DNA of 64,000 nucleotides from an uncultured Oligoflexia bacterium (GCA_950061135.1 CATLVU010000002.1:3-64002); one strand, 5' to 3'. Counted from the stretch's first letter, positions 1 to 16,458 are shown. Translations and numbers: made by a program. The notes: generated from the sequence alone by a model not told the origin.

Positions 1-64
1 AATAACTCACTGGTAAAATCTGCACAATATTTTAGACTTGCATAAATTGCGTTATTCTAAGTGT

Positions 65-1399
65 ATGAAATATCATATTCTGTTTATTTATTTCTTCTTA
101 CTAAGCTTAGGGGCATACGGGCAGAGCGCACAGAAAATACCTACTTTTATAGACCTTGAAAATATTAATGATATTTCATCTGATGAAAAAAGATTGGTAA
201 AAAAAAGTCTCTATGAGGCGCTACTTTCTGGTAAAAACTTTGATTTGAATATTAATGGTAGTATCCCTGTCGCAGATAAAGAAAAAAAAGATTGGCTTAT
301 TATTAAAGTTAAAGTGAATAAAGAGGAGTTAGGCTATAGTGCAGAGTTAGCATTAGAGAGTTTATTGCAAAAAAAGATATTAAATAGAGTAGGTCAAGAT
401 AAAATTGCTCGTAATAAGTTACAGTTAACATTAAGACAAATGATTTATAAAGTTTTATATGGAGAGAGGTTTGACGTTGAAACAAACTCACTCAAAAATG
501 ATGAGCCAATTGCAGCAATAGCAAATTTAAATAATAATAAAGCTCCAGATATTGATCCTGATGTAGATGATCCCGATGATGTTGTTCCAGACCTTGATGA
601 AGAGAGAGAGCAAGCTTTAGATAAAGACAGTGATGATAAACCGCAAATAGCGGAACAAAAAAAAAAGAAGTCAACATCAAAAAAGCCTGAAATCAAAATT
701 AGAGACTTTGATTCACCAAATATCGACTTATCTCGAGAGCCTGTGGAAAAAGGTGATGAGCCTCAAAGGCTCCCTCCTTGGGTAAAAACTTTTGATATCG
801 AAGCTGGATTAGTATTAGAAGGGATTACTTCTAGAGTTGTCGTAGATGCATCAGAAAAAAATGCTCTTCTTAAGATAGGGGGAGAATATTTATTTTCATC
901 ACCATCTCAAGTTAGTTATTTTAAAGCTAAGGGAAGCTTTGATAAGATTTTCACTGAAGATGAATTTCAAAAACCAATTAATTTTGAATTAGGAATTAGA
1001 AGACATCTTCATCTTTTTTGGCGAAAGGTTTTTCTTTTTGGAGGAGCACACTTTGAAACAGAGAACTTCATTAATGTTAATGAGCAAGGAGCGGGCCAAC
1101 AATTATGGAGTAACCAAATTATGTGGTACGAGTTTGGAATGAATATTTTTTATCAACTATTTAATCGTACTCACGAGATAGAATATTCAGCTAAATCAAT
1201 TCTTGCAGGTGTAACAGATTTAAGTATTAATGGACAAGAAGTCTCAATTACAGGAACAAGGCTTGATATCAACCTCGTTTTTCAGATAAAAAAGAAATAT
1301 CATTTAAAACTAGGGTACAACACTCAGGCATTGCAGTCGCAAACTACTGATTTTGAATACACTCAATCGCAAATACTAGTAGGTTTACTATATAGATAG
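65..1399 (+). CDS. secreted/outer-membrane protein of unknown function (signal peptide, acidic linker, beta-rich C-terminal half)
   Basis: ORF 38..1399. The ATG at 65 opens a classic signal peptide, MKYHILFIYFFLLSLGAYGQ. A low-complexity acidic tract (DIDPDVDDPDDVVPDLDEE) is followed by about 200 aa of alternating-hydrophobicity sequence. First gene of a tightly packed same-strand cluster. Start is uncertain (TTG 38 vs ATG 65). Confidence 0.55.
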   Translation: MKYHILFIYFFLLSLGAYGQSAQKIPTFIDLENINDISSDEKRLVKKSLYEALLSGKNFDLNINGSIPVADKEKKDWLIIKVKVNKEELGYSAELALESLLQKKILNRVGQDKIARNKLQLTLRQMIYKVLYGERFDVETNSLKNDEPIAAIANLNNNKAPDIDPDVDDPDDVVPDLDEEREQALDKDSDDKPQIAEQKKKKSTSKKPEIKIRDFDSPNIDLSREPVEKGDEPQRLPPWVKTFDIEAGLVLEGITSRVVVDASEKNALLKIGGEYLFSSPSQVSYFKAKGSFDKIFTEDEFQKPINFELGIRRHLHLFWRKVFLFGGAHFETENFINVNEQGAGQQLWSNQIMWYEFGMNIFYQLFNRTHEIEYSAKSILAGVTDLSINGQEVSITGTRLDINLVFQIKKKYHLKLGYNTQALQSQTTDFEYTQSQILVGLLYR

Positions 1400-1466
1400 G
1401 CGATATTTGCCTCCTTTAGTTTAGTTTTCAAGACTTATAAAATTAAAAAGGAGGAAGTTTGTAACT

Positions 1467-2030
1467 ATGGCCCAATTACATGAAAAATTCAATTTAGTAG
1501 AGACTCTTATTGGTGATCACAAGAAGGTTGTTATTGATCAAGAAGAGGAGTTTTTCTTTTCATCTGGTAGTTTTAATTCGCAACAATATATCAAGCAATA
1601 TACAGATGATATTGAGTCTAAAGTTTATGGACTACTAGTAAAGTTTTTTAAGAAAAATCATTTTAAATTAAAAATTAATTATCATTTAATGCCAGATAAT
1701 GACCTACACGATAAATTAGTTTTTAGTTTTTATAAAGTTTTTAAATCTTTAAGTAAGGTATATCTATCACAGTTGAGTTCTGAGAAAACATATATCAAAC
1801 TTGGAATTCACGAGAATAGTTTCACTGTTAATATAACTTTTTCACCAAAAAACTCAAAGCAATGGGACACGCAAATAAATAAAATAAATAAAACCAAAAA
1901 GGGTAGTTGGGGATTATTCAAATCTAATATTCCTCGGAAGCTAAACCTGAGAGCGTCTTTCTCATACTATTCTCTGGGTAAGCAGATTATCAAGCAAAAT
2001 ACAAAGGTACGTTTAAATGAAGTTAGATAG
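1467..2030 (+). CDS. hypothetical cytoplasmic protein (no signal peptide)
   Basis: Strong RBS (aaaaaGGAGGaag) just upstream of ATG 1467. 187 aa with no recognisable motif. 14-nt overlap with the next gene. Confidence 0.6.
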   Translation: MAQLHEKFNLVETLIGDHKKVVIDQEEEFFFSSGSFNSQQYIKQYTDDIESKVYGLLVKFFKKNHFKLKINYHLMPDNDLHDKLVFSFYKVFKSLSKVYLSQLSSEKTYIKLGIHENSFTVNITFSPKNSKQWDTQINKINKTKKGSWGLFKSNIPRKLNLRASFSYYSLGKQIIKQNTKVRLNEVR

Positions 2031-3606
2031 ATTATTTATCATTTTTCTTTTTACCGTTACAATGACTGCACAAGCAAATACGGTCTTATCTACTAAGTTT
2101 ATAGAAAAGATTAATAAAACAGAAAACTCAGAGCAGCTTAATAGAGTTGTTAATGAACTTGATAAGTCTTTGTCATCTGAAACCGATAAAACACGTTTAG
2201 AAACGATTACAAGATCATTTGCAAAAGTGAATCTTGCAAAGTTTAAAGTTCAAGCAAAAGATATCTTAAATGAGATGTACACATTCCTAGCAGGACAAAA
2301 CTCAGACGTTTCGACTCAGGCCCAACGTATGATTGAGTCATCTTTTAATATATCTAAATATTCAGATGTATTAGACTTCCAAGGCCAATTGGCATTATTT
2401 GCGAATGCGATTGAACAAGACGAGAAACTTACAAAGGAAATGCTTAGTTATACAAAGAACTTACTAGGAATTCTTGAAAATCATACAAGAAATTATTTGG
2501 CATTGAATAGTTTTAGTAAATTAAAAGAGGTTTTAACGCTTTTTGTTTTGAGATCCAATACACTAAAAATACCAGTCGTTAAAACTGAGCCAACTCAAAC
2601 AAATCAAGATTCAGCTGCGATGCTTGCTGGGTGGGGATTATTTTTAATTACGTTTGGATTATATTTAAAAGCAGGATTTTTGAGAAGAAGAGAGCTTTCA
2701 AGTGAAAGAAAAAAGTGGAGTAAGCTTTGTAATGACAAAGAAGTTGAAAGGCAGTGGAGTGAAAATAAAAGTAGATTGTTAATGCGGGGAATAGGCGAAG
2801 CGTTAGTTGTGACTGATAAGAAAGGAAAAGTCATAGAATCGAATAAGAAGTCACAAGCACTTCTTGGAAGATATGCTAAGAATGGAAGTACTTTTGGAAG
2901 AGTTTTTCCAAAACTATTTATGAAAAATAATAATTTAAAACATTTTGAAGGACTTTATACGCTAAGTTTTGACCCAAAAAACTATTATCATGTACAAACA
3001 ATATTTATTAAAGAGCTAGATCAAAAAATTTATAAGATATTACCTTTGAATAAAAATGCACTTATTACTCTAGGAAAAAGCTATTTAGAGCCACAAGCAG
3101 AGACAGTGAATATTTTAGATCTGGTTGAAGATGAGTTTACAAAAAAATACAGCTTCCAAGAGTTCGAAAAACTAGAGCTTCAAAATATTAAAACTAAAGG
3201 TGACATTTCTATTGAAATTGAACCGGAGCAGGCATCAAAAATGGTTGAGCACTATTTAAACTTATCTCAAGCATTAGTTGATGTATTGAACTGTGATCAA
3301 GTAACAAGAGAAATTAAACGAACTGGTGACAAAATTCAATTGTTGGCATGTTTTGATGGAACAAAAATTCTTCAAGAAGACCTGAGCCAGCAAATAAAAA
3401 TTCAAGGAAAAAACATTACCTTAGCTGATTATTTAACGAGAGTAGAAAAAGATTATCGAGAGCTTCAGGGTGCGGTTACAATTAAAAACCTTAGGAAAGA
3501 AAAAAGACTTCAAACTATTTTGGAAGTTACTTTACTAGTCGCCTATGAGCGTAAAATAGACTCTAGAACTTATGATAGCGAAGAAGGGCAATATATCGAT
3601 GTATAA
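2017..3606 (+). CDS. bitopic membrane protein, paralog A of a degenerate histidine-kinase-ATPase-like ('pseudo-kinase') family
   Basis: N-terminal signal/anchor (LFIIFLFTVTMTAQA), a central TM (GWGLFLITFGLYL) and a cytoplasmic C-terminal half. The last ~60 aa (QQIKIQGKNITLADYLTRVEKDYRELQGAVTIKNLRKEK) align without gaps to ORF 6956..8017. No HExxxP H-box and no GxGxG box seen. Confidence 0.6.
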   Translation: MKLDRLFIIFLFTVTMTAQANTVLSTKFIEKINKTENSEQLNRVVNELDKSLSSETDKTRLETITRSFAKVNLAKFKVQAKDILNEMYTFLAGQNSDVSTQAQRMIESSFNISKYSDVLDFQGQLALFANAIEQDEKLTKEMLSYTKNLLGILENHTRNYLALNSFSKLKEVLTLFVLRSNTLKIPVVKTEPTQTNQDSAAMLAGWGLFLITFGLYLKAGFLRRRELSSERKKWSKLCNDKEVERQWSENKSRLLMRGIGEALVVTDKKGKVIESNKKSQALLGRYAKNGSTFGRVFPKLFMKNNNLKHFEGLYTLSFDPKNYYHVQTIFIKELDQKIYKILPLNKNALITLGKSYLEPQAETVNILDLVEDEFTKKYSFQEFEKLELQNIKTKGDISIEIEPEQASKMVEHYLNLSQALVDVLNCDQVTREIKRTGDKIQLLACFDGTKILQEDLSQQIKIQGKNITLADYLTRVEKDYRELQGAVTIKNLRKEKRLQTILEVTLLVAYERKIDSRTYDSEEGQYIDV

Positions 3607-4213
3607 ACTATTAATAGCGATATTCTTTTTTTCTATTGCCCACAGCTTTGCGGGCTTTAAAAGTAATATATCTTCAAGTTTTGGTTTAGTGAGTGTTAAT
3701 TTAACAGAAAGTGAAAGCACATTAGAGCAAACAGATGAAGATATTCCAGAAGGAGAAGATCAAGCTGTTTCTTCTGTGAGTCTTAGCACTGTAAGTTTAG
3801 ATCTTGTTTATGAAAAACCTCAAACTGAAAAATACTCATATCTTTTTAAGGCGGTCGTTCCTGTGGTGACAACTGAAGGAGCAGGAGTATTCATGGGAGG
3901 AGTTGGATTTAATTGGTACTTTAACGGATTGTCTGCAGCGTATACAGTCAATATTTCGGGTAGTGAAGTTTCTTTGGACCCAGGCCTTAGATACTATGCA
4001 GGAACTATGTTGGGACTAGGGTATCTTGTTTATAATACTGTATCAGCAAAAAAGAGTGATGTATTTTTTGACTTAGGACTTCACGGTGGTCTTGTTTATT
4101 CCTTTGGCAAAAAGTGGGGAATCAAGGCAGAAGCTGGTGTCGCTAGAGGAACCGGTGTTGCCACTTCGAATATTAATGTAAAAACCTTTGCAGGATTGAG
4201 TTATAACCTATGA
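3599..4213 (+). CDS. small outer-membrane beta-barrel-like protein
   Basis: ORF 3572..4213. ATG 3599 starts the signal peptide MYKLLIAIFFFSIAHSFAG and overlaps the upstream stop (ATGTATAA). Gly/aromatic-rich alternating strands continue to the C-terminus (FAGLSYNL). Confidence 0.55.
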   Translation: MYKLLIAIFFFSIAHSFAGFKSNISSSFGLVSVNLTESESTLEQTDEDIPEGEDQAVSSVSLSTVSLDLVYEKPQTEKYSYLFKAVVPVVTTEGAGVFMGGVGFNWYFNGLSAAYTVNISGSEVSLDPGLRYYAGTMLGLGYLVYNTVSAKKSDVFFDLGLHGGLVYSFGKKWGIKAEAGVARGTGVATSNINVKTFAGLSYNL

Positions 4214-4797
4214 AAATTTTAATTTTATTATTAATTTCTAATTACACATTTGCTCAAGAAGTAAAAATCAAGAGCAATGTTAAAGAAGCAATTGTTTCAT
4301 TTGTAAATAGCGCAGGAGAAAAAAAGAGTATAGGAAAAACACCTCTCGACACAACAATGGATGATTTAAAGTCTAATGTGGGAGATAAAGAGAATATTCA
4401 GTTACAAGTCTCCAAGGATGGATTTCAAAGCTTTAATCTTATTTTACCGCTTATTGGGTCATCAGAAATAAATGTTATGGCCACCTTGGAAGTAAATCAA
4501 GATATAAAACTTACTCAAGACGTAGACCTTTTAATCGCAGACTTATTTGATGTTTTAAGAATGATCAGGTTAAAAGATTATGGTTCAGCGTTTGCAAAGC
4601 TTGATTTGTTAGAAAAGAAATTTCCTTACTACAGTATTATTTATGAAATGAAGGGAATGGGACATTATTTATCTAAAGACTTTAAAAAAGCATTAAACTT
4701 CTACAGAAAAGCTTTTGGGTTAAACCCAAAAAATAGAGAAGCTTATAAAATGAAAAATTATTTAGAGAAGAAATTTAATTTACAGGCCAAAAGGTAA
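4210..4797 (+). CDS. periplasmic/lipoprotein-like protein with a PEGA-like N-domain and a TPR-like C-terminus
   Basis: ATGA overlap with the upstream gene. Signal peptide MKILILLLISNYTFAQ. PEGA-like pattern (IGKTPLD...LQVSKDGFQSF). TPR-like YYSIIYEMKGMGHYLSKDFKKALNFYRKAFGLNPKN. Confidence 0.5.
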   Translation: MKILILLLISNYTFAQEVKIKSNVKEAIVSFVNSAGEKKSIGKTPLDTTMDDLKSNVGDKENIQLQVSKDGFQSFNLILPLIGSSEINVMATLEVNQDIKLTQDVDLLIADLFDVLRMIRLKDYGSAFAKLDLLEKKFPYYSIIYEMKGMGHYLSKDFKKALNFYRKAFGLNPKNREAYKMKNYLEKKFNLQAKR

Positions 4798-4801
4798 TTG
4801 A

Positions 4802-6946
4802 ATGAAAAGAATTTTATTATGGACATTATTATTACCAGCGGTAGCGATTGCGACATCTAATAATATTTCGCAATTGCCGTCGATGGATTGGCAAAAACAG
4901 GCATTAGAAGATAGAACGAAGCAAAAAATAGATGACGTTTTAAAAAGTGTTTTGAAACCTAGCCAATACAATGTTGATATTAAAATTGAAACTCGTGGAG
5001 TCGTAGAGCCTGAGTTTGATAAACCATTGTCTGAAAAAAATAAAGAGGATGATTCAAAGTTAGATGTAGGAGAGTATGATTCAGAGACAGGAGAAGAGAG
5101 CTCCGATTCAGCACAAGCAGCAGCAGCTGATGATAAAAGAGAAAGTACTGCGGACGTGAAATTTGTAGATACATATCCTGAAGAGAGCCCTGAAGACTAT
5201 ATTATCTTTAATAAATTTGGTCTTGAAGCACCATTAGTAGATGATTTTAATGACTTTCAACCTGATGGAAAAATTGTTTTATCAATGACTGGAGGTGGAG
5301 GTCAGTCCAATCAAGACAAAGCTCAAATCAATGCAATGAAAGCTCGAGAGAAGCAATATATTGAGCAGATTAGAGATCTTAAAAATGAGAAACGGTCTGC
5401 CGAAAATAAAGTATCACCAATCGAGCAATTATGGATGTATAATAATGCAGTAGACATTTTTAAAAATCTAAAATCAGTTGATATTTTAGTTCGTGTTTCT
5501 AATGAAGTAACAGAAGAAACAAAGCAAGCTGTTGAACGCTATGTAAAAGCAATAAATTTCAATCTTGGAAAAGTTAAGCCAAATATTAAAATTGAGTATG
5601 GCCTTCTTGGTGCGCTCGCAGCTGAAACGCCAACAGATCAATTATTTAAAATTTTAGACTATTTAACAAAGTTCAGTACGTTCTTAGGAATAGTATTCGG
5701 TGTGATTTTATTTGGTCTTATAGGACGATCTCTTATTCAAAAATACTTTGATCTTAACTCTGCTCAATCTCAGAGTGGACAATTCAAAATGGATGGAGGA
5801 GAAGGAGTTGCAGGAGAAGATGGAGATGGTACCGATCATGAAGAAACATCTGGAACTAGAGAGTGGGGATCCTCTGTTGTTCCTGTAAATGGAATAGAAA
5901 GATTTGAGACATTTTTTGAAAAAGATCCACAAAATGCGATGCTATTAATAAAAAAATGGATTAGCGAAGATGATGATAGGGCAAGTAAATCTTTGAGGTC
6001 ACTTGTTCAACAATTCGAAAATGCTCAACTAGCTGAAGTTTTTAAGCATCTATCAGAAGAAGAAAGAGCAAGCTGGAAAAAGCTTCTTGACCGTCCATTG
6101 ACACGGGAAGAATTAGACATAGCTAACGCCTATATTGGAAATCAAATTGTTCAAAGTATTATCGTTGAGAAATATGTAGATGATCCAGAGACCTTTGATT
6201 TATTACTCCGTTTGACACCTAAGCAAGTGGCGATGATTGTAGAGAGAGAAGCTTCTATTTCTGGTGCATTATTAAACTCTTTAAGTGCTAACTTTGTAAG
6301 TCAGGTCCTAGGATTATGCTCAGAACAAGTTCAATCACAAATGGTACGTGATGCTGTTGCTTTAACACCAGATCAAATTAGATCAAAACAAGATGAGATT
6401 AAAGAAGTTCTTAAACAATATGATGAAAGGGTAACAAATAGACCTTTTGTTGAGAAAATTCTATCGCTATTACCTATGGCCATGCCATCAACAGAGAATA
6501 ATTTATTCCAAGCACTTTATGATAATGGAGATCAAGATCTACTCAAGAAAACGGCAAGAAAATATTTTCCAGCGGACTATATTCCAAAACTTCCTACTGA
6601 TTTTCTTAAAGAATTATTGATGGCCTACCCAATGAATAAGAAAGTCGAAATGCTTTATCCGCTTGAAGAAACGATTAAAGAGCAATTGATTGATATATTT
6701 GCTCCAGAAGGTTCTAAAGCTTATGACTTATTAGAGTTAGAATTTGAAAATATTGAAACAAATGATGTACGACAAACTCAGTTACTTAATAATGGCGATA
6801 AAAACTGGAAAGAATTTGTTAATTATGTGAGAGATAAAATAGAAAAAGATACAAATTATCAGGCAGAGATTACCGATTTACTCGATCAGTGGGTTTTAGA
6901 TAAAATGGGTGGACAAACAATGCCAGATTTAAAGGTTGTCGCGTAA
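4802..6946 (+). CDS. bitopic inner-membrane protein: periplasmic domain + TM + cytoplasmic FliG/MgtE_N-like helical repeats
   Basis: 714 aa. N-terminal signal/anchor (LLWTLLLPAVAIA), an acidic periplasmic region and a TM at FSTFLGIVFGVILFGLIG. The cytoplasmic segment LTPKQVAMIVEREASISGALLNSLSANFVSQVLGLCSEQVQSQMVRDAVALTPDQIRSKQDEI follows the FliG C-domain pattern, and a second similar repeat lies downstream. Confidence 0.55.
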   Translation: MKRILLWTLLLPAVAIATSNNISQLPSMDWQKQALEDRTKQKIDDVLKSVLKPSQYNVDIKIETRGVVEPEFDKPLSEKNKEDDSKLDVGEYDSETGEESSDSAQAAAADDKRESTADVKFVDTYPEESPEDYIIFNKFGLEAPLVDDFNDFQPDGKIVLSMTGGGGQSNQDKAQINAMKAREKQYIEQIRDLKNEKRSAENKVSPIEQLWMYNNAVDIFKNLKSVDILVRVSNEVTEETKQAVERYVKAINFNLGKVKPNIKIEYGLLGALAAETPTDQLFKILDYLTKFSTFLGIVFGVILFGLIGRSLIQKYFDLNSAQSQSGQFKMDGGEGVAGEDGDGTDHEETSGTREWGSSVVPVNGIERFETFFEKDPQNAMLLIKKWISEDDDRASKSLRSLVQQFENAQLAEVFKHLSEEERASWKKLLDRPLTREELDIANAYIGNQIVQSIIVEKYVDDPETFDLLLRLTPKQVAMIVEREASISGALLNSLSANFVSQVLGLCSEQVQSQMVRDAVALTPDQIRSKQDEIKEVLKQYDERVTNRPFVEKILSLLPMAMPSTENNLFQALYDNGDQDLLKKTARKYFPADYIPKLPTDFLKELLMAYPMNKKVEMLYPLEETIKEQLIDIFAPEGSKAYDLLELEFENIETNDVRQTQLLNNGDKNWKEFVNYVRDKIEKDTNYQAEITDLLDQWVLDKMGGQTMPDLKVVA

Positions 6947-6955
6947 GGATAATTT

Positions 6956-8017
6956 ATGATTAAAATATTATTAGCTTGTATTATGATTAGTTTTTCTTTT
7001 TATGGCCATACTGTTGAGGTTGGTACTGATTATATTAAATACCTTAATAAGATTAATTCTGTTAAAAGTATTCAACAAGCGAAAGATTTATCAAAAGAAA
7101 TTGAATCTAAATTACAGCTTAAGAAGAACAAAGTACATTTGTCATTATTAGCAAAAAGATTTGATGAAGAGGCTGAAAACCTTAAGGCCAAAGATGCACT
7201 AGCTGAGTATAGAAGAGTGATGACATTATTTTTAACTGCAAACTCTTTGAGAGAGTTTAATCCTATGCCTTCTTATAAAACGATTGAGAAAACCCAGAAT
7301 ATGATGTGGACACTAGGTGTTTTTATTTTGGCTTTTTTTGCTGCACTTTTTTGGAGCTTAAGACAGAGATCGACATTTTTAGCAACACGTTTAATTGATA
7401 AAAAACAAATAATAAAATTAGGAACGAGGATAGAAGAATTAGAGTCATTACTGTCCTCAAGAGAAATGACAACGCCAGTTGAAATACAGCAACCTTTAGA
7501 GAACTCTGATTTTATCCATCCTGTAGAGTTTGTTGAAAATTTCCTTATAGAAAAACTAAATTTTAAGGATCATACAAATTTAAAAATTAATGAAGATGAT
7601 AAAGTTGAAGATTCAAAGTTTGCATATTCTTCTGAACTTGCAGATTCATTTATTACGAAATATTTTGAATTAGTTTATGGAATGCAAAGTATTTTAGAGT
7701 CAGGTGAGATGCAGCTTAACTTTAAAAAAGATGAAGGACTGTTTAGTTATGATTTGTCTTTTTCTAATGTAAAATTGTCTGCAGAGGACTTAGAAAAACA
7801 AATAGAAGTTGCAGGTGAGAAGGTCGTTTTTGCAGACTATTTAAAAGAGATAGAAGTTTACTTTAAAAGAGAGCAAGCAAACTTGAAAATTAAAAACTTA
7901 AAAAAGTCTGGCGTAAATTCTGTTCAAGTCTCATTAGAGTTAATTGAAAATAGTATTATTCAAGAAGATAGCAAAGTAGAAAGTCACTCAGCCAATAATA
8001 CTCATCAGAGCTTATAA
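6956..8017 (+). CDS. bitopic membrane protein, paralog B of the pseudo-kinase family
   Basis: Signal/anchor, central TM (MWTLGVFILAFFAALFWSL) and a C-terminus (KQIEVAGEKVVFADYLKEIEVYFKREQANLKIKNLKKSG) homologous to ORF 2017..3606. Last gene of the cluster. Confidence 0.6.
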   Translation: MIKILLACIMISFSFYGHTVEVGTDYIKYLNKINSVKSIQQAKDLSKEIESKLQLKKNKVHLSLLAKRFDEEAENLKAKDALAEYRRVMTLFLTANSLREFNPMPSYKTIEKTQNMMWTLGVFILAFFAALFWSLRQRSTFLATRLIDKKQIIKLGTRIEELESLLSSREMTTPVEIQQPLENSDFIHPVEFVENFLIEKLNFKDHTNLKINEDDKVEDSKFAYSSELADSFITKYFELVYGMQSILESGEMQLNFKKDEGLFSYDLSFSNVKLSAEDLEKQIEVAGEKVVFADYLKEIEVYFKREQANLKIKNLKKSGVNSVQVSLELIENSIIQEDSKVESHSANNTHQSL

Positions 8018-8850: not shown

Positions 8851-9528
8851 TTAGCTTAAAGGTCTGTTATTTTTCAGCCTTAGCTCAAGGTCGCTAACTA
8901 GTTGATTTTTAAATGTCATGAAATCATTTGAAAAGTTCGCCTTGTAATCATTAATCTCTAAAACTTCTAGGTTTAAATGAATATCTTTGAATAACCTAGG
9001 TATAAGCTGTCCAGGGTGCTGAATATGGTGTAGCCCACCAGAGTAGGCAATTAACATTCTTCCTTCATTGAGTTCAAAAAGAATATCAGCAATACCGCTT
9101 TTTATAGACATAGGCTTACCGTAAGCATCAAGTCCATTTTTACGCATCATTCTACCTTCAGGTGCAATTGCGATCATGGACCTATTTTCAATAGCTTGCA
9201 AGAACTGCTGCCAGCTCTTATCTCTTTTCCTAGTGATAGAAATCATACCTTTTCCGCCAATGAGCTTCCAAAATAGGCCGACAATTGGCCGATCAAGAGT
9301 TTTATTGGCCCCAGGGATAACCATTTTTCTTGCAAATCTCCATACAAATGAAACAGGAACGGCACTAACAAATATGGGTTCATATAAGGAAGTATGATTT
9401 AGTATGACTATAAGTCTGATCTTTTTGAAGTCCTGAATTTCTGATAGCCATTTTAGATGTAGCCTATAAAAAATATGAGAAAATACTTTGATCATCATCA
9501 TGATCAAAAAGCTTATTAAAATACGCAT
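8851..9528 (-). CDS. lysophospholipid (PlsC-family) acyltransferase
   Basis: Acyltransferase block I-like NHTSLYEP (an HX4E variant of HX4D) and block III PEGRMMR. N-terminal membrane anchor. Confidence 0.7.
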   Translation of the reverse strand: MRILISFLIMMMIKVFSHIFYRLHLKWLSEIQDFKKIRLIVILNHTSLYEPIFVSAVPVSFVWRFARKMVIPGANKTLDRPIVGLFWKLIGGKGMISITRKRDKSWQQFLQAIENRSMIAIAPEGRMMRKNGLDAYGKPMSIKSGIADILFELNEGRMLIAYSGGLHHIQHPGQLIPRLFKDIHLNLEVLEINDYKANFSNDFMTFKNQLVSDLELRLKNNRPLS

Positions 9529-9688: not shown

Positions 9689-10285
9689 ATGATCTACGAA
9701 ACAGCGTACGTATTACGTGCCGACACGACAGAAGATGCTATTAACAAAATGGCAGAAACAGTTAAAGCTACAATTGCAGAGTATGCAGGAGAAGTCCTTG
9801 TAAGCGATGCATGGGGAGTTAAAACTTTCGCTCAACCAACTTCAAAGGGTGAAACTCGAGGAAATTATTTTTACGTTATGTATAAAGCAAATACAGAATG
9901 TAACAAAGAACTTGAAAGAAGATTCAGAATTAGTGAAGAAACTTTAAAGTTTATTTTTGTTAAGCTTGGAGTTGAAGCTGACCAAGAAGCAATTGTTAAG
10001 GGATATAAAAACCCTGATCACGCGGTAACTGAAGCTGGTGCTGATGATGATAAAGAAAGAAAGATGTTTTCAAAAAGAAAGTCTTGTTGGTTTTCAGCAA
10101 AGAAAACTTCTCCAGACTGGAAACATGCAAATACATACGCATGGTTAGTTAATGAGTTTGGTAAAATTTCTCCAGCACGAGTGACAGGTCTAAGACCAAA
10201 GTATCAAAGAGCTGCTACAACTGCGATTAAGCGTGGACGTTGCATGGGAATGATCAGTCATATGTCTAGTAGAACATTAAGATAA
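9689..10285 (+). CDS. rpsF/rpsR: fused 30S ribosomal proteins S6 (N-terminal) and S18 (C-terminal) in one 198-aa ORF
   Basis: The N-terminal ~115 aa fit S6 (MIYETAYVLRAD...GNYFYVMYKA...RFRISEETLKFIFVKL). The C-terminal ~75 aa fit S18 (KRKSCWFSAKK...GKISPARVTGLRPKYQRAATTAIKRGR). The reading frame is continuous. RBS aGGAGaataagt lies before the ATG. Confidence 0.85.
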   Translation: MIYETAYVLRADTTEDAINKMAETVKATIAEYAGEVLVSDAWGVKTFAQPTSKGETRGNYFYVMYKANTECNKELERRFRISEETLKFIFVKLGVEADQEAIVKGYKNPDHAVTEAGADDDKERKMFSKRKSCWFSAKKTSPDWKHANTYAWLVNEFGKISPARVTGLRPKYQRAATTAIKRGRCMGMISHMSSRTLR

Positions 10286-14856: not shown

Positions 14857-14890
14857 TTTGAAAAAGAAGTATTTTTTCAAGGGCTTATTT

Positions 14891-15664
14891 ATGGATATAG
14901 CTACGGTTATTGGTTTAGTTCTCGCGATTGTCTCTATACTAGGATCGATTCTAGCAGGTGGAACACTCGGCGCTTTTATTGATGTTCCCTCTATACTGGT
15001 TGTTGGAGGAGGAGTTACCTCTGCAATTTTTATAAAATGGCCATTAGATCAAGTAAAGATGCTAGTGCCTGTTTATATGAAATCCATTATGAATACGGCA
15101 ACAGATCCTAAAGGTATAATTGAAGAGATACAGTCTTTAGCAGAAACAGCAAGAAGAGAGTCTGTTTTCGCACTCGAAAAAGTTCCTGTAGAAGATGCCT
15201 TTTTGAAAAAAGCGGTGACACTTGCTGCAGATAATAGACCTCCTGAAATTATAACTTCAGTTCTACAATTAGAAATTGATTCGGTATCTGAAAGGCATAA
15301 GCTAGGGATTAATATTATAGAAAATGTTGGTAATGATGGCCCAGCATTCGGAATGATTGGGACACTTATTGGACTTGTTATCATGCTTCAAAACTTATCA
15401 GGTGGTCCTGAAGAGCTAGGTAAGGCGATGGCAGTTGCGATTCTTACTACTTTTTATGGAGCTGTCCTAGCAAACGTTTTTGCGCTCCCAATTGCTAACA
15501 AACTAAAGTTTTATTCTGAAAATGAAATACTTGTTATGAATATTATTGTTGCTGGTGTACTGGGAATTGTTGCTGGTGAGAACCCAAGAGTTATTCGAGA
15601 AAAACTTGATTCATTTTTACCTCCTGCTCAAAGAAATATTGAATCTGAAGATGGAGGAGAATAA
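14891..15664 (+). CDS. motA: flagellar stator protein MotA/PomA (PomA-like)
   Basis: MDIATVIGLVLAIV N-terminus, four TMs, PAFGMIGTLIGLV and AILTTFYGAVLAN. Overall colinear with Vibrio PomA as I remember it. The ORF-track TTG at 14858 would add 11 non-conserved residues. Confidence 0.9.
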   Translation: MDIATVIGLVLAIVSILGSILAGGTLGAFIDVPSILVVGGGVTSAIFIKWPLDQVKMLVPVYMKSIMNTATDPKGIIEEIQSLAETARRESVFALEKVPVEDAFLKKAVTLAADNRPPEIITSVLQLEIDSVSERHKLGINIIENVGNDGPAFGMIGTLIGLVIMLQNLSGGPEELGKAMAVAILTTFYGAVLANVFALPIANKLKFYSENEILVMNIIVAGVLGIVAGENPRVIREKLDSFLPPAQRNIESEDGGE

Positions 15665-16458
15665 TGGCCGATGAAGATGTAGTAAACGAATGTCCTGAAT
15701 GTGAGCCCATACCTGAGTGTAAAAAAGGTGCTCCCGAATGGATGGCGACATTTTCAGATCTCGTTACACTATTATTAACATTCTTTGTTCTTTTATATGC
15801 CATGAGTAAGACCGATGAGAGTAAATTTGAGTCTGTAGCTGGTTCAATCAGAAAAGCCTTTGCAGGGAACGCTCTTAAAATAGGAGAAACCATTCAGCTT
15901 GGTAAGTCTCCAGATGATGCTCCAACTATGATTGAGTCTCAAGAGCCTGTAGAGCCTTTTCCAATTGACTTGTTAACTACAGAAGGTTTTTTAGATAAAC
16001 AAGAGATTAATAGAGAATCAGATGAGGTATTAGCAGAAATGCGAAAAACGATTCAAAGTTATGACCTTGCAGAATCAGTCGATTTTTATCAGATGAAAGA
16101 AGGAATTAAAATTAGAGTTAAGGATAAAATAATCTTTAAACCTAATAGTACCGAAATGGCGAATACAAGTTTTCAAAATGTATTTCAAAGAGTTGTTAAA
16201 CTTTTAAGGGAAAACAAGTGGACTGTTTTTGTTGAAGGGTATGCAGATAAGAATGAAAGAGATGCTTATAATTTAAGTTCTCAAAGAACAATGGTTGTGA
16301 TGAAGGCCATCACTGATAGAGGCGTCAGCGCTGATCGAGTAACGCCAGTTTTCTATGGTTCAAGTCGGGCTGTAGAGAATGACTTTAATAGTAAAGTCGA
16401 ATTAATTTTGAGAAAAAGAGACCTAAGAACACCAGGTAAAAGAGTTCCATCTAGGTAA
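15664..16458 (+). CDS. motB: flagellar stator protein MotB/PomB with an OmpA-like C-terminal domain
   Basis: PEWMATFSDLVTLLLTFFVLL carries the conserved channel Asp. The Cys-rich N-terminus NECPECEPIPEC resembles Vibrio PomB. Its start codon abuts the motA stop (motA ends at 15664, the first base of this gene). Confidence 0.9.
   Translation: MADEDVVNECPECEPIPECKKGAPEWMATFSDLVTLLLTFFVLLYAMSKTDESKFESVAGSIRKAFAGNALKIGETIQLGKSPDDAPTMIESQEPVEPFPIDLLTTEGFLDKQEINRESDEVLAEMRKTIQSYDLAESVDFYQMKEGIKIRVKDKIIFKPNSTEMANTSFQNVFQRVVKLLRENKWTVFVEGYADKNERDAYNLSSQRTMVVMKAITDRGVSADRVTPVFYGSSRAVENDFNSKVELILRKRDLRTPGKRVPSR

Follow-up and report, generated by a model that had tools for sequence, protein, structure and literature searches.

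A naturally fused and reduced FliF-FliG-like protein in non-flagellar, MotAB-linked operons of Bdellovibrionota

To our knowledge, the flagellar torque generator, in which MotAB acts on FliG mounted on the FliF ring, is known only within the flagellum. The question whether its parts are also used elsewhere is raised by one gene (g6, positions 4802-6946, plus strand) in a 64,000-nucleotide stretch of DNA, here called the window, from a marine predator, an uncultured Oligoflexia bacterium (GCA_950061135.1 CATLVU010000002.1:3-64002). A reading made from the sequence alone (the sequence-only reading) had proposed that the gene encodes a natural FliF-like/FliG-like hybrid inside a non-flagellar operon. 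This proposal was supported by profile searches, by hhalign, by predicted folds and by a separate canonical fliF/fliG pair in the same genome. The protein consists of flagellar rotor parts, naturally fused and reduced, and it is probably a rotor-like subunit of a non-flagellar, MotAB-coupled envelope complex, in which the C-terminal half of FliF is joined to a FliG-like protein.

Homology of a single polypeptide to FliG and FliF

In flagellar operons, fliF and fliG are adjacent genes, and FliG is a separate soluble protein which assembles with FliM and FliN; the FliF MS-ring is a ~33-34-mer. The gene studied here is one uninterrupted open reading frame (ORF) of 714 codons by translation. Its proposed layout, with an N-terminal anchor, a periplasmic part, one transmembrane (TM) helix, a Gly/Asp/Glu-rich linker and a cytoplasmic part, was confirmed by the ORF, hydropathy and composition. 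Residues 1-18 (...AIA/TS) read as a signal peptide or anchor, and a 19-residue hydropathy scan placed the single internal TM helix at residues ~291-312 (FSTFLGIVFGVILFGLIG). Two stretches, one acidic (residues 65-130, 21 D/E in 66) and one rich in Gly, Asp and Glu (residues 322-362, 9 G and 9 D/E in 41), were of low confidence in an AlphaFold model of the full protein built on an alignment of 25 homologs (A1), and residues 364-704 were entirely helical with a predicted local distance difference test score (pLDDT) of 80-93.

Single-sequence scans of the protein against Pfam and NCBIfam gave nothing above threshold, and a single-sequence phmmer search against PDB matched a designed helical repeat only. 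Family profiles of 25 (A1), 37 (A2) and 142 (A7) sequences were searched against PDB (177,635 sequences). The single match of A1 was the middle and C domains of Thermotoga maritima FliG (3ajc, E 6.9e-5), which was also matched by A2 (E 1.3e-8) and A7 (E 2.9e-9); A7 matched Salmonella FliG as well (8umx, E 5.5e-6), and eight of its ten matches under E 1 were FliF or FliG. When the full AlphaFold model was compared with PDB by Foldseek, the 12 top matches were all FliG; six FliG alignments were full-length (315-339 columns, probability 1.0, E 3.5e-4 to 1.3e-3), and the C domain of T. maritima FliG (1qc7) fitted the model with a TM-score of 0.73 and a root-mean-square deviation of 2.6 Å over 92 columns. 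Alignment of A2 by hhalign with 12 FliG sequences (from E. coli and Bdellovibrionota) covered the whole of FliG (P 1.6e-4), with residues ~390-690 of the fusion protein corresponding to E. coli FliG 1-323.

The FliG domain order N, M, C was retained, with the N domain down to about four helices, and identity to FliF and FliG was very low (11-18%). The cytoplasmic part had been described as FliG/MgtE_N-like repeats; the FliG-like character stood, and the part was found to hold more than repeats, being made of a FliF C-terminal tail (residues 362-390) followed by FliG-like N, M and C domains. The segment first assigned to the FliG C domain (residues ~471-533) aligned with the FliG middle domain instead (E. 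coli ~113-175), and the "second repeat" (604-633), correctly seen as FliG-like, was the real counterpart of the FliG_C segment quoted for comparison. This exchange arose because two FliG ARM repeats resemble each other.

The EHPQR motif of FliG_M is the FliM-binding motif. It was not conserved in the family: by hhalign, EHPQ fell on R482-E-A-S and R160 on D515. Therefore, the fusion protein should not bind FliM. The classical charges by which the E. coli torque helix faces MotA are K264, R281, D288, D289 and R297. In the hhalign mapping, R281 corresponded to K639 (K/R in 106 of 142 homologs) and D289 to E647 (E/D in 140 of 142), and further conserved charges of this helix were R641, D/E642 (137/142) and E649. 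Where FliG has its MFXF hinge, the family has an invariant Pro (P590, 142 of 142 homologs).

The other half of the protein was traced to FliF by the same profiles. A2 matched the engineered Vibrio FliF-FliG fusion 8z4d (E 4.5e-5), Vibrio FliF 8z5s (E 0.0027) and, weakly, Salmonella FliF; for A7 the values were 2.4e-7 for 8z4d, 0.01 for Vibrio FliF and 0.016 for Salmonella FliF. The matched pieces were colinear: A2 positions 40-85 (residues ~28-64) fell on the first helix and strand of the third ring-building motif (RBM3) at Vibrio FliF 268-313, and positions 201-335 (residues ~260-390) fell on the end of RBM3, TM2 and the tail at Vibrio FliF 445-578. By hhalign, the family was aligned with canonical FliF from 16 genomes of the phylum at P 1.7e-5, and with E. 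coli FliF added (17 sequences) at P 1.4e-6 and a probability of 90.5, residues 17-397 corresponding to E. coli FliF 222-552 (RBM3 to C terminus). Since E. coli residue 222, where this alignment begins, already lies in RBM3, the TM1, RBM1 and RBM2 of FliF have no counterpart, and therefore a seat for the type III export gate is missing.

The pattern DP..A.L.I(K/R).WI of the tail (residues 362-390) aligned by hhalign with E. coli DPRVVALVIRQWI, and the resemblance can be seen directly when GIERFETFFEKDPQNAMLLIKKWI is set beside SQRIREMSDNDPRVVALVIRQWI of E. coli; W386 (138/142), F368 (132/142) and R/K367 (138/142) are kept. In the periplasmic part, the elements of a ring-building motif follow one another in the model as helix 28-47, strand 56-64, an insert of ~140 residues, strand 223-233, helix 238-249 and strand 261-267 (pLDDT 83-93). 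The segment 223-267, for which such a motif had been proposed, does resemble one and is not a whole motif; it corresponds to the beta-alpha-beta half that follows the insert in an RBM3-like domain, the other half lying before the insert. No significant match in PDB was obtained with a profile restricted to the periplasmic part. In a Foldseek search with a separate model of residues 1-325, Salmonella FliF ring chains were ranked 1, 6, 7, 8 and 22, and EscJ was ranked 11 and 21; the modelled fold is consistent with RBM3 and would be insufficient by itself. Inside the insert, the motif at residues 130-162 is invariant in A1 at F136, G140, A143, P144, L145, N150, D151, P154, G156, K157, I158 and M162, with K138 and P144 at least 90% conserved in the 142 sequences and short strands predicted at 135-137 and 140-142. 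By hhalign, the insert was not aligned with the collar strands of FliF, and a collar role for the insert or its motif is conjectural.

A different origin of the cytoplasmic part was also considered, namely an MgtE_N-type regulatory domain, which would sense Mg2+ or act similarly on a membrane scaffold and be unrelated to torque. Pfam MgtE_N gave sub-threshold matches to the fusion protein (residues 400-429, E 0.029; 15.3 bits against a cut-off of 25.9) and to 15 of the 25 close homologs (best 3.7e-6). However, MgtE_N and FliG are related folds, and sub-threshold matches are what such kinship would lead one to expect. Profiles and Foldseek searches against PDB gave FliG and no MgtE, the alignment spans three FliG domains together with the FliF tail, and the genes are strongly linked to MotAB as described below. 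Moreover, no CBS or MgtE membrane domain was detected by Pfam, so the Mg-transporter-like scaffold that had been offered as one option had nothing but the sub-threshold MgtE_N match on its side. An MgtE_N-type regulator is thus very unlikely.

Family, operon and the dedicated MotAB clade

A word-index search returned 25 close homologs of 680-765 aa, all annotated as "hypothetical" and all from Halobacteriovorax, Bacteriovoracaceae or Bdellovibrionales, which form alignment A1; no more distant or named relatives were gained when this search was run with the 142-sequence profile. In an exhaustive phmmer search of 1.84 billion representatives, 328 clusters were reached at E<=1e-3, of which 165 were at E<=1e-30, and residues ~200-714 were shared by most clusters. 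Named members of ten distant clusters came from Bdellovibrionales, Bdellovibrionia or Bacteriovoracaceae and likewise bore the label "hypothetical protein". Hundreds of clusters at 50% identity contain intact fusion ORFs of full length. Of 201 genomes sampled evenly across the phylum, 27 carry the gene, with two or three copies in some; this count is a lower bound, because more divergent relatives were missed by that search. Two divergent proteins encoded beside MotAB, of 628 aa (L080:8796-10682) and 621 aa (L081:10236-12101; also beside g5), are weak matches to the family profile hidden Markov model (E 2e-9 and 1.6e-13 when a small database was searched). Therefore, more divergent fusion subfamilies exist and the true spread is wider. 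In addition, six spots of the fusion gene were matched at 100% by contigs of 151-207 nt from four marine metatranscriptome runs, which weakly supports transcription of the gene, the depth being low and DNA carry-over possible.

The fusion gene closes a tightly packed row of six genes (38-6946; Table 1), and the window contig begins just before the first of them. Related loci were searched with A1, by which only close relatives were reached. In at least 15 related loci, the fusion gene comes after orthologs of 450-620, 180-240, 300-610, ~210 and ~200 aa, in this order. An ortholog of g1, for which Pfam gave no match, stands at the equivalent position in nearly all related loci, and g2 is conserved in position and diverges fast in sequence. 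The most conserved neighbour is g5 (34-61% identity across loci), the gene immediately before the fusion gene in both types of cassette that were recognised. The short cassette, which is common, consists of g5, a fusion gene (580-685 aa), x214, MotA and MotB, with a giant Ig-like gene often adjoining, and x214 is a paralog of g4. The long cassette is the one in the window. In two complete relatives (G058 and G101), the long operon opens with three Fn3/Ig-like proteins of ~650, ~1720 and ~1650 aa ahead of g1, and just upstream of it lies a divergently transcribed motA-motB pair; the window contig starts at g1, so that these parts lie beyond it. Fn3/Ig-like genes (HYDIN/VesB-like) were located at L082:4549-16671 and L084:4266-16281 (G058 and G101) and at L004:1-5014.

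These arrangements bring the fusion gene together with MotAB. The window holds g4-g5-g6, relatives hold g5-fusion-(x214)-MotA-MotB, and the long-type super-locus has its divergent motAB; MotA and MotB adjoin the module, either divergent from the operon or inside it, in L011, L012, L013, L020 and L023. The cassette MotB carries a plug and an OmpA-like (peptidoglycan-binding) domain. The cassette-type MotA was searched in the same 201 genomes. In the family to which the host bacterium belongs, a strong ortholog of the MotA clade (E<=1e-69) was present in 14 of 14 genomes with the fusion gene and in 1 of 22 without it (Fisher p 4e-9), the other fusion-free genomes having MotA paralogs only (1e-23 to 1e-32). 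Furthermore, at least 22 of the 27 positive genomes encode a MotA of the cassette clade no farther than 20 kb from the fusion gene on one contig, often at less than 1 kb, and in G154 and G050 only 33-65 bp downstream of it.

The option of a stator-coupled scaffold, raised from the sequence, was therefore supported by neighbourhood and by co-occurrence with a dedicated MotAB clade; the partner proposed with it was not. The PomA-like gene at 14891-15664 belongs to the MotAB pair of the window (14858-16458), whose orthologs occur in 37 of 41 family genomes, with or without the fusion gene, and whose MotA is 31-34% identical to the cassette clade. This pair was rejected as the partner, being a near-universal housekeeping stator outside the cassette clade.

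Table 1 Features of the window and of the fusion protein
Feature	Positions	Strand	Basis
g1, 453-aa secreted protein with acidic linker and beta-rich C-terminal half (outer-membrane-barrel-like)	38..1399	+	ORF; first of the six-gene module
g2, 187-aa protein, no recognisable family	1467..2030	+	~180-240 aa ORF at this position in >=15 loci
g3, 529-aa bitopic membrane protein, no recognisable family	2017..3606	+	conserved position
g4, 213-aa small outer-membrane beta-barrel-like protein	3572..4213	+	one member matches Pfam OMP_b-brl at 7e-4
g5, 195-aa secreted protein, small N-terminal domain and C-terminal tetratricopeptide repeats (TPR)	4210..4797	+	sub-threshold Pfam TPR; profile matches TPR proteins in PDB
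g6, 714-aa FliF(RBM3-TM-tail)-FliG(N-M-C)-like fusion	4802..6946	+	profiles, hhalign, AlphaFold, Foldseek
g6 residues 1-18, N-terminal signal peptide or anchor	4802..4855	+	sequence; helix 2-18 in model
g6 residues 28-64, RBM3-like first half (helix 28-47, strand 56-64)	4883..4993	+	HMMER, hhalign, pLDDT ~90
g6 residues 130-162, most conserved periplasmic motif PEDYIIFNKFGLEAPLVDDFNDFQPDGKIVLSM, within insert	5189..5287	+	alignment conservation
g6 residues 206-267, helix and RBM3-like second half (strand 223-233, helix 238-249, strand 261-267)	5417..5602	+	hhalign, pLDDT 83-93
g6 residues 291-312, sole TM helix, counterpart of FliF TM2	5672..5737	+	hydropathy, alignment to FliF TM2
g6 residues 322-361, disordered Gly/Asp/Glu-rich cytoplasmic linker	5765..5884	+	pLDDT <50, composition
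g6 residues 362-390, helix pair like the FliG-binding tail of FliF (GIERFxxFxxxDPxxAxLLIKKWI)	5885..5971	+	aligned to last ~30 FliF residues
g6 residues 391-460, reduced FliG_N-like helical domain	5972..6181	+	hhalign to E. coli FliG ~40-104, Foldseek
g6 residues 461-545, FliG_M-like domain, EHPQR absent	6182..6436	+	HMMER to T. maritima FliG middle and C domains
g6 residues 546-704, FliG_C-like domain, invariant P590 at MFXF-hinge place	6437..6913	+	pLDDT 86-93, Foldseek
g6 residues 634-650, torque-helix-like charged helix APEGSKAYDLLELEFEN	6701..6751	+	hhalign mapping
g7, 353-aa lineage-specific paralog of g3	6956..8017	+	BLASTP to g3
MotA/MotB (PomAB-like) pair	14858..16458	+	Pfam matches

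Among the remaining genes, g3 and g7 are paralogous bitopic membrane proteins (23% identity over the C-terminal 134 aa, E 9e-11 by BLASTP), and g7 lies outside the conserved module, being absent downstream in L004 and in loci of other genera. A "pseudo-histidine-kinase" idea for g3 and g7 was dropped, with no support beyond their mutual paralogy, and profiles of g3 and of g4 gave nothing useful against PDB. In one uncultured Bacteriovoracaceae genome, a gene for a 354-aa protein with a C-terminal PilZ domain (L023:8186-9250) lies between motB and the cassette TPR gene, which by analogy hints at cyclic di-GMP control like that of the flagellar YcgR brake. A gene for a 225-aa PlsC-type acyltransferase (8851-9528, minus strand; Pfam E 3e-8) and one for a 266-aa secreted protein converge on the end of the module; neither is conserved beside the module in relatives. 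A 198-aa ORF at 9689-10285, just upstream of a membrane-protein gene and rplI, seemingly joins ribosomal S6 to an S18-like C-terminal part (...KRKSCWFSAKK...).

Canonical flagellar genes and a second cassette in the host genome

The host assembly is 88.6% complete in 178 contigs. A canonical fliF (570 aa), followed by an adjacent fliG (348 aa), was found on contig C18, and therefore the fusion protein is not the flagellar FliF/FliG. The host is flagellated, with a complete canonical fliF/fliG and several stators, which would suit a role of the fusion protein and its MotAB within the normal or a second flagellum, such as that of a further rotor or stator scaffold, of a reserve of stators or of a brake; the PilZ gene between motB and g5 in one relative, recalling YcgR-type brakes, points the same way. 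However, no flagellar gene was found in or beside ~35 examined related loci. Without RBM1 and RBM2 the protein cannot house the export gate, and without EHPQR it should not bind FliM. The distribution of the fusion gene is also patchy (27 of 201 phylum genomes) compared with canonical FliF (38 of 61 genomes), and the housekeeping stator is independent of it. A flagellar accessory is thus considered unlikely.

A further contig, C78 (L064:1-2411), carries x214, MotA and MotB after the 3' end of a fusion gene. This MotAB pair was examined as the partner of the window protein and was dropped, because the contig opens within a second fusion gene, of short type, close to its 3' end: the first 156 nt of the contig code for the last 52 residues of this protein, up to QAA*, with 42% identity over 40 aa to L071 (E 7e-10). 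The MotA on this contig is 74-76% identical to short-cassette MotA of G101 and G095, and no other copy is present in the host assembly. Most likely, the MotAB pair of C78 belongs to a paralogous short cassette, and the host genome probably has two paralogous cassettes, both cut by assembly gaps. In the same genome, contigs C91 (L002:1420-1833) and C88 (L003:1396-1824) encode stand-alone FliG_C proteins of 137 and 142 aa, which exceed the Pfam threshold for FliG_C (E 9e-14 and 1e-10) and have non-flagellar surroundings.

The retention of long and short paralogous cassettes within genomes bears on another explanation, by which the fusion gene is the decaying and at present functionless remnant of a duplicated fliF-fliG pair. 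The 11-18% identity to FliF and FliG and the loss of RBM1, RBM2 and EHPQR would fit such decay. Against it stand, apart from the paralogous cassettes, the full-length intact ORFs in hundreds of clusters, the invariant motifs, the conserved synteny and the transcript fragments, and we regard it as the least credible of the explanations considered.

Fit of a proposed MotAB-coupled rotor-like complex

The fusion protein was compared with the flagellar rotor (FliF and FliG with MotA5B2/PomA5B2). They resemble each other in a probable RBM3-like domain, TM2, a tail with its Trp and FliG N-M-C in the order FliF then FliG, as well as in a charged helix with R281- and D289-like residues at the place of the torque helix and in the link to a MotAB whose MotB has a plug and a peptidoglycan-binding domain. 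They differ in that the fusion is one polypeptide without TM1, RBM1, RBM2 and EHPQR, in which an acidic insert with a new motif replaces the beta-collar; its locus has no FliM/FliN, rod, hook or filament genes, and it is partnered instead with barrels of the outer membrane, a TPR protein and giant Fn3/Ig proteins. From these features, a mechanism may be proposed for the rotor-like complex. The RBM3-like domain would build a ring in the inner membrane, and the fused tail and FliG_N-like domain would hold a FliG-like ring beneath it. The cassette MotAB, anchored to peptidoglycan, would push on the helix with K639 and E647 using the ion-motive force. Without an export gate, a rod or a FliM/FliN switch, g5 and the barrels would receive the motion or force in the periplasm and would perhaps pass it on to the giant Fn3/Ig surface proteins. 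The partners of the complex would thus be the dedicated MotA/MotB, the TPR protein g5 and the barrels g4/x214/g1, with the long type adding g2, g3 and the giant Fn3/Ig exported proteins.

Several observations weigh against this reading. Pfam FliG families were listed neither for the fusion protein nor for its 25 homologs, a scan of the host genome with PF01706 matched three other genes and not the fusion gene, Pfam YscJ_FliF was not matched by the fusion protein, and no Pfam FliF model reached threshold. The evidence from sequence profiles is weaker on the FliF side than on the FliG side (HMMER E 0.003-0.016), and the best fold match to the model of residues 1-325, the FliF ring 7bk0, was non-significant (E 0.22, 52 columns). 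At the place of the FliF beta-collar, the insert 65-205 is acidic and mostly of low confidence, with a long helix at 171-201. Conservation of the torque helix, which had been proposed as a check, was found in part: K639 and E647 are conserved, the family shows no conservation at the positions of K264, D288 and R297, and two of five torque charges are thus kept. In favour of the reading, the cassette MotA retains Arg at the place of E. coli R90, which pairs with FliG D288/D289 (PMC12505986), and the counterpart of E98 is ambiguous. The MotAB of the long cassette lies outside the present assembly since the contig begins at g1, and the MotAB link in this genome is therefore drawn from its relatives. 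What is said of function beyond homology comes entirely from gene order and co-occurrence, and the host is flagellated, so that a flagellum-modulating role is possible.

The main rival is a force transducer that does not fully rotate, the other alternatives being less likely. By this account, the fusion protein would form a static or locally moving docking ring which recruits MotAB, and force would be transferred in the manner of Tol-Pal or TonB to the barrels and the TPR protein, for envelope tethering, secretion or surface-protein handling. The partners, being outer-membrane barrels and a TPR protein as in Tol-Pal/CpoB and TonB, agree with it, and so do the lack of axial (rod-like) genes in the operon, the disordered acidic insert in the collar region and the torque-helix charge set kept in part. 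However, the stator is of MotAB type, with the MotB plug and peptidoglycan-binding domain, and not of ExbBD/TolQR type. Furthermore, the FliG N-M-C and RBM3-like module is under selection in at least 142 clusters, which is what a rotor needs and exceeds the need of a docking ring. This mode is therefore given a smaller, still appreciable chance, and a rotor-like subunit of a MotAB-coupled complex is preferred.

Other ion motors of the inner membrane, namely Agl-Glt of Myxococcus and Bdellovibrio, GldLM/PorLM of the type IX secretion system, Tol-Pal and TonB-ExbBD, are coupled via periplasmic or TPR-like parts to barrels and large surface proteins. The present system shares with them, as judged from gene layout, an inner-membrane ion motor together with TPR, barrels and large surface proteins. 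Those motors have ExbB/TolQ/AglR- or GldL-type stators and no FliG/FliF-like partner, whereas here the stator is of MotAB type and the partner is derived from FliF and FliG. Covalent FliF-FliG junctions are themselves not new. In engineered fusions (Salmonella deletion-fusions; Vibrio FliFG, 8Z4D/8Z4G) the junction is likewise covalent, and the profile match to the Vibrio fusion is colinear; according to abstracts and as quoted in another study, they still assemble rings and those of Salmonella still rotate (PMC4768692). However, they were made in the laboratory with full-length FliF in a complete flagellum, while the fusion described here is natural, N-terminally reduced and outside flagellar loci. 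A natural FliF-FliG fusion has been reported in Chlamydiaceae (Bergeron 2016); it has ~330 aa, keeps an RBM2-like part, lacks an RBM3/SpoIIIAG-like one, has a FliG_M-like region alone and was discussed with the injectisome (PMC4768692). Both natural fusions are single chains with a FliF-like periplasmic part, a TM helix and a FliG-like cytoplasmic part in a non-flagellar setting, but in the present one an RBM3-like domain and three FliG domains are retained and MotAB is linked. A 2025 survey noted rotor proteins without filament genes and asked about other functions of rotor parts (PMC12199754), and a 2025 MotAB phylogeny listed non-flagellar relatives with no FliG-like partner (PMC12505986). 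Our literature searches found the engineered and chlamydial fusions and no description of this cassette, and the machine containing the fusion protein may be of a new kind.

Taken further, and more tentatively, Halobacteriovorax-type predators and other Bdellovibrionota could possess a class of ion-driven rotary envelope machines, often in two paralogous copies, in which a homo-oligomeric FliF(RBM3)-FliG ring is turned by its own MotAB and torque is passed via TPR and barrels to Fn3/Ig proteins. The purpose of such a machine could be surface movement, adhesion or the handling of prey contact. In annotation, the fusion proteins are labelled "hypothetical", and the MotAB pairs linked to them would be wrongly counted among the stators of the flagellum. 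Strains of Halobacteriovorax can be grown in culture, and the fusion offers a single-gene handle on the system. If the rotor-like reading is true, the rotor-stator core of the flagellum has been reused by evolution for another task, without the export apparatus, the switch and the axial parts, which would bear on the origin of the flagellar motor, on the definition of a minimal rotor and on the power source of the surface behaviours of predatory bacteria.

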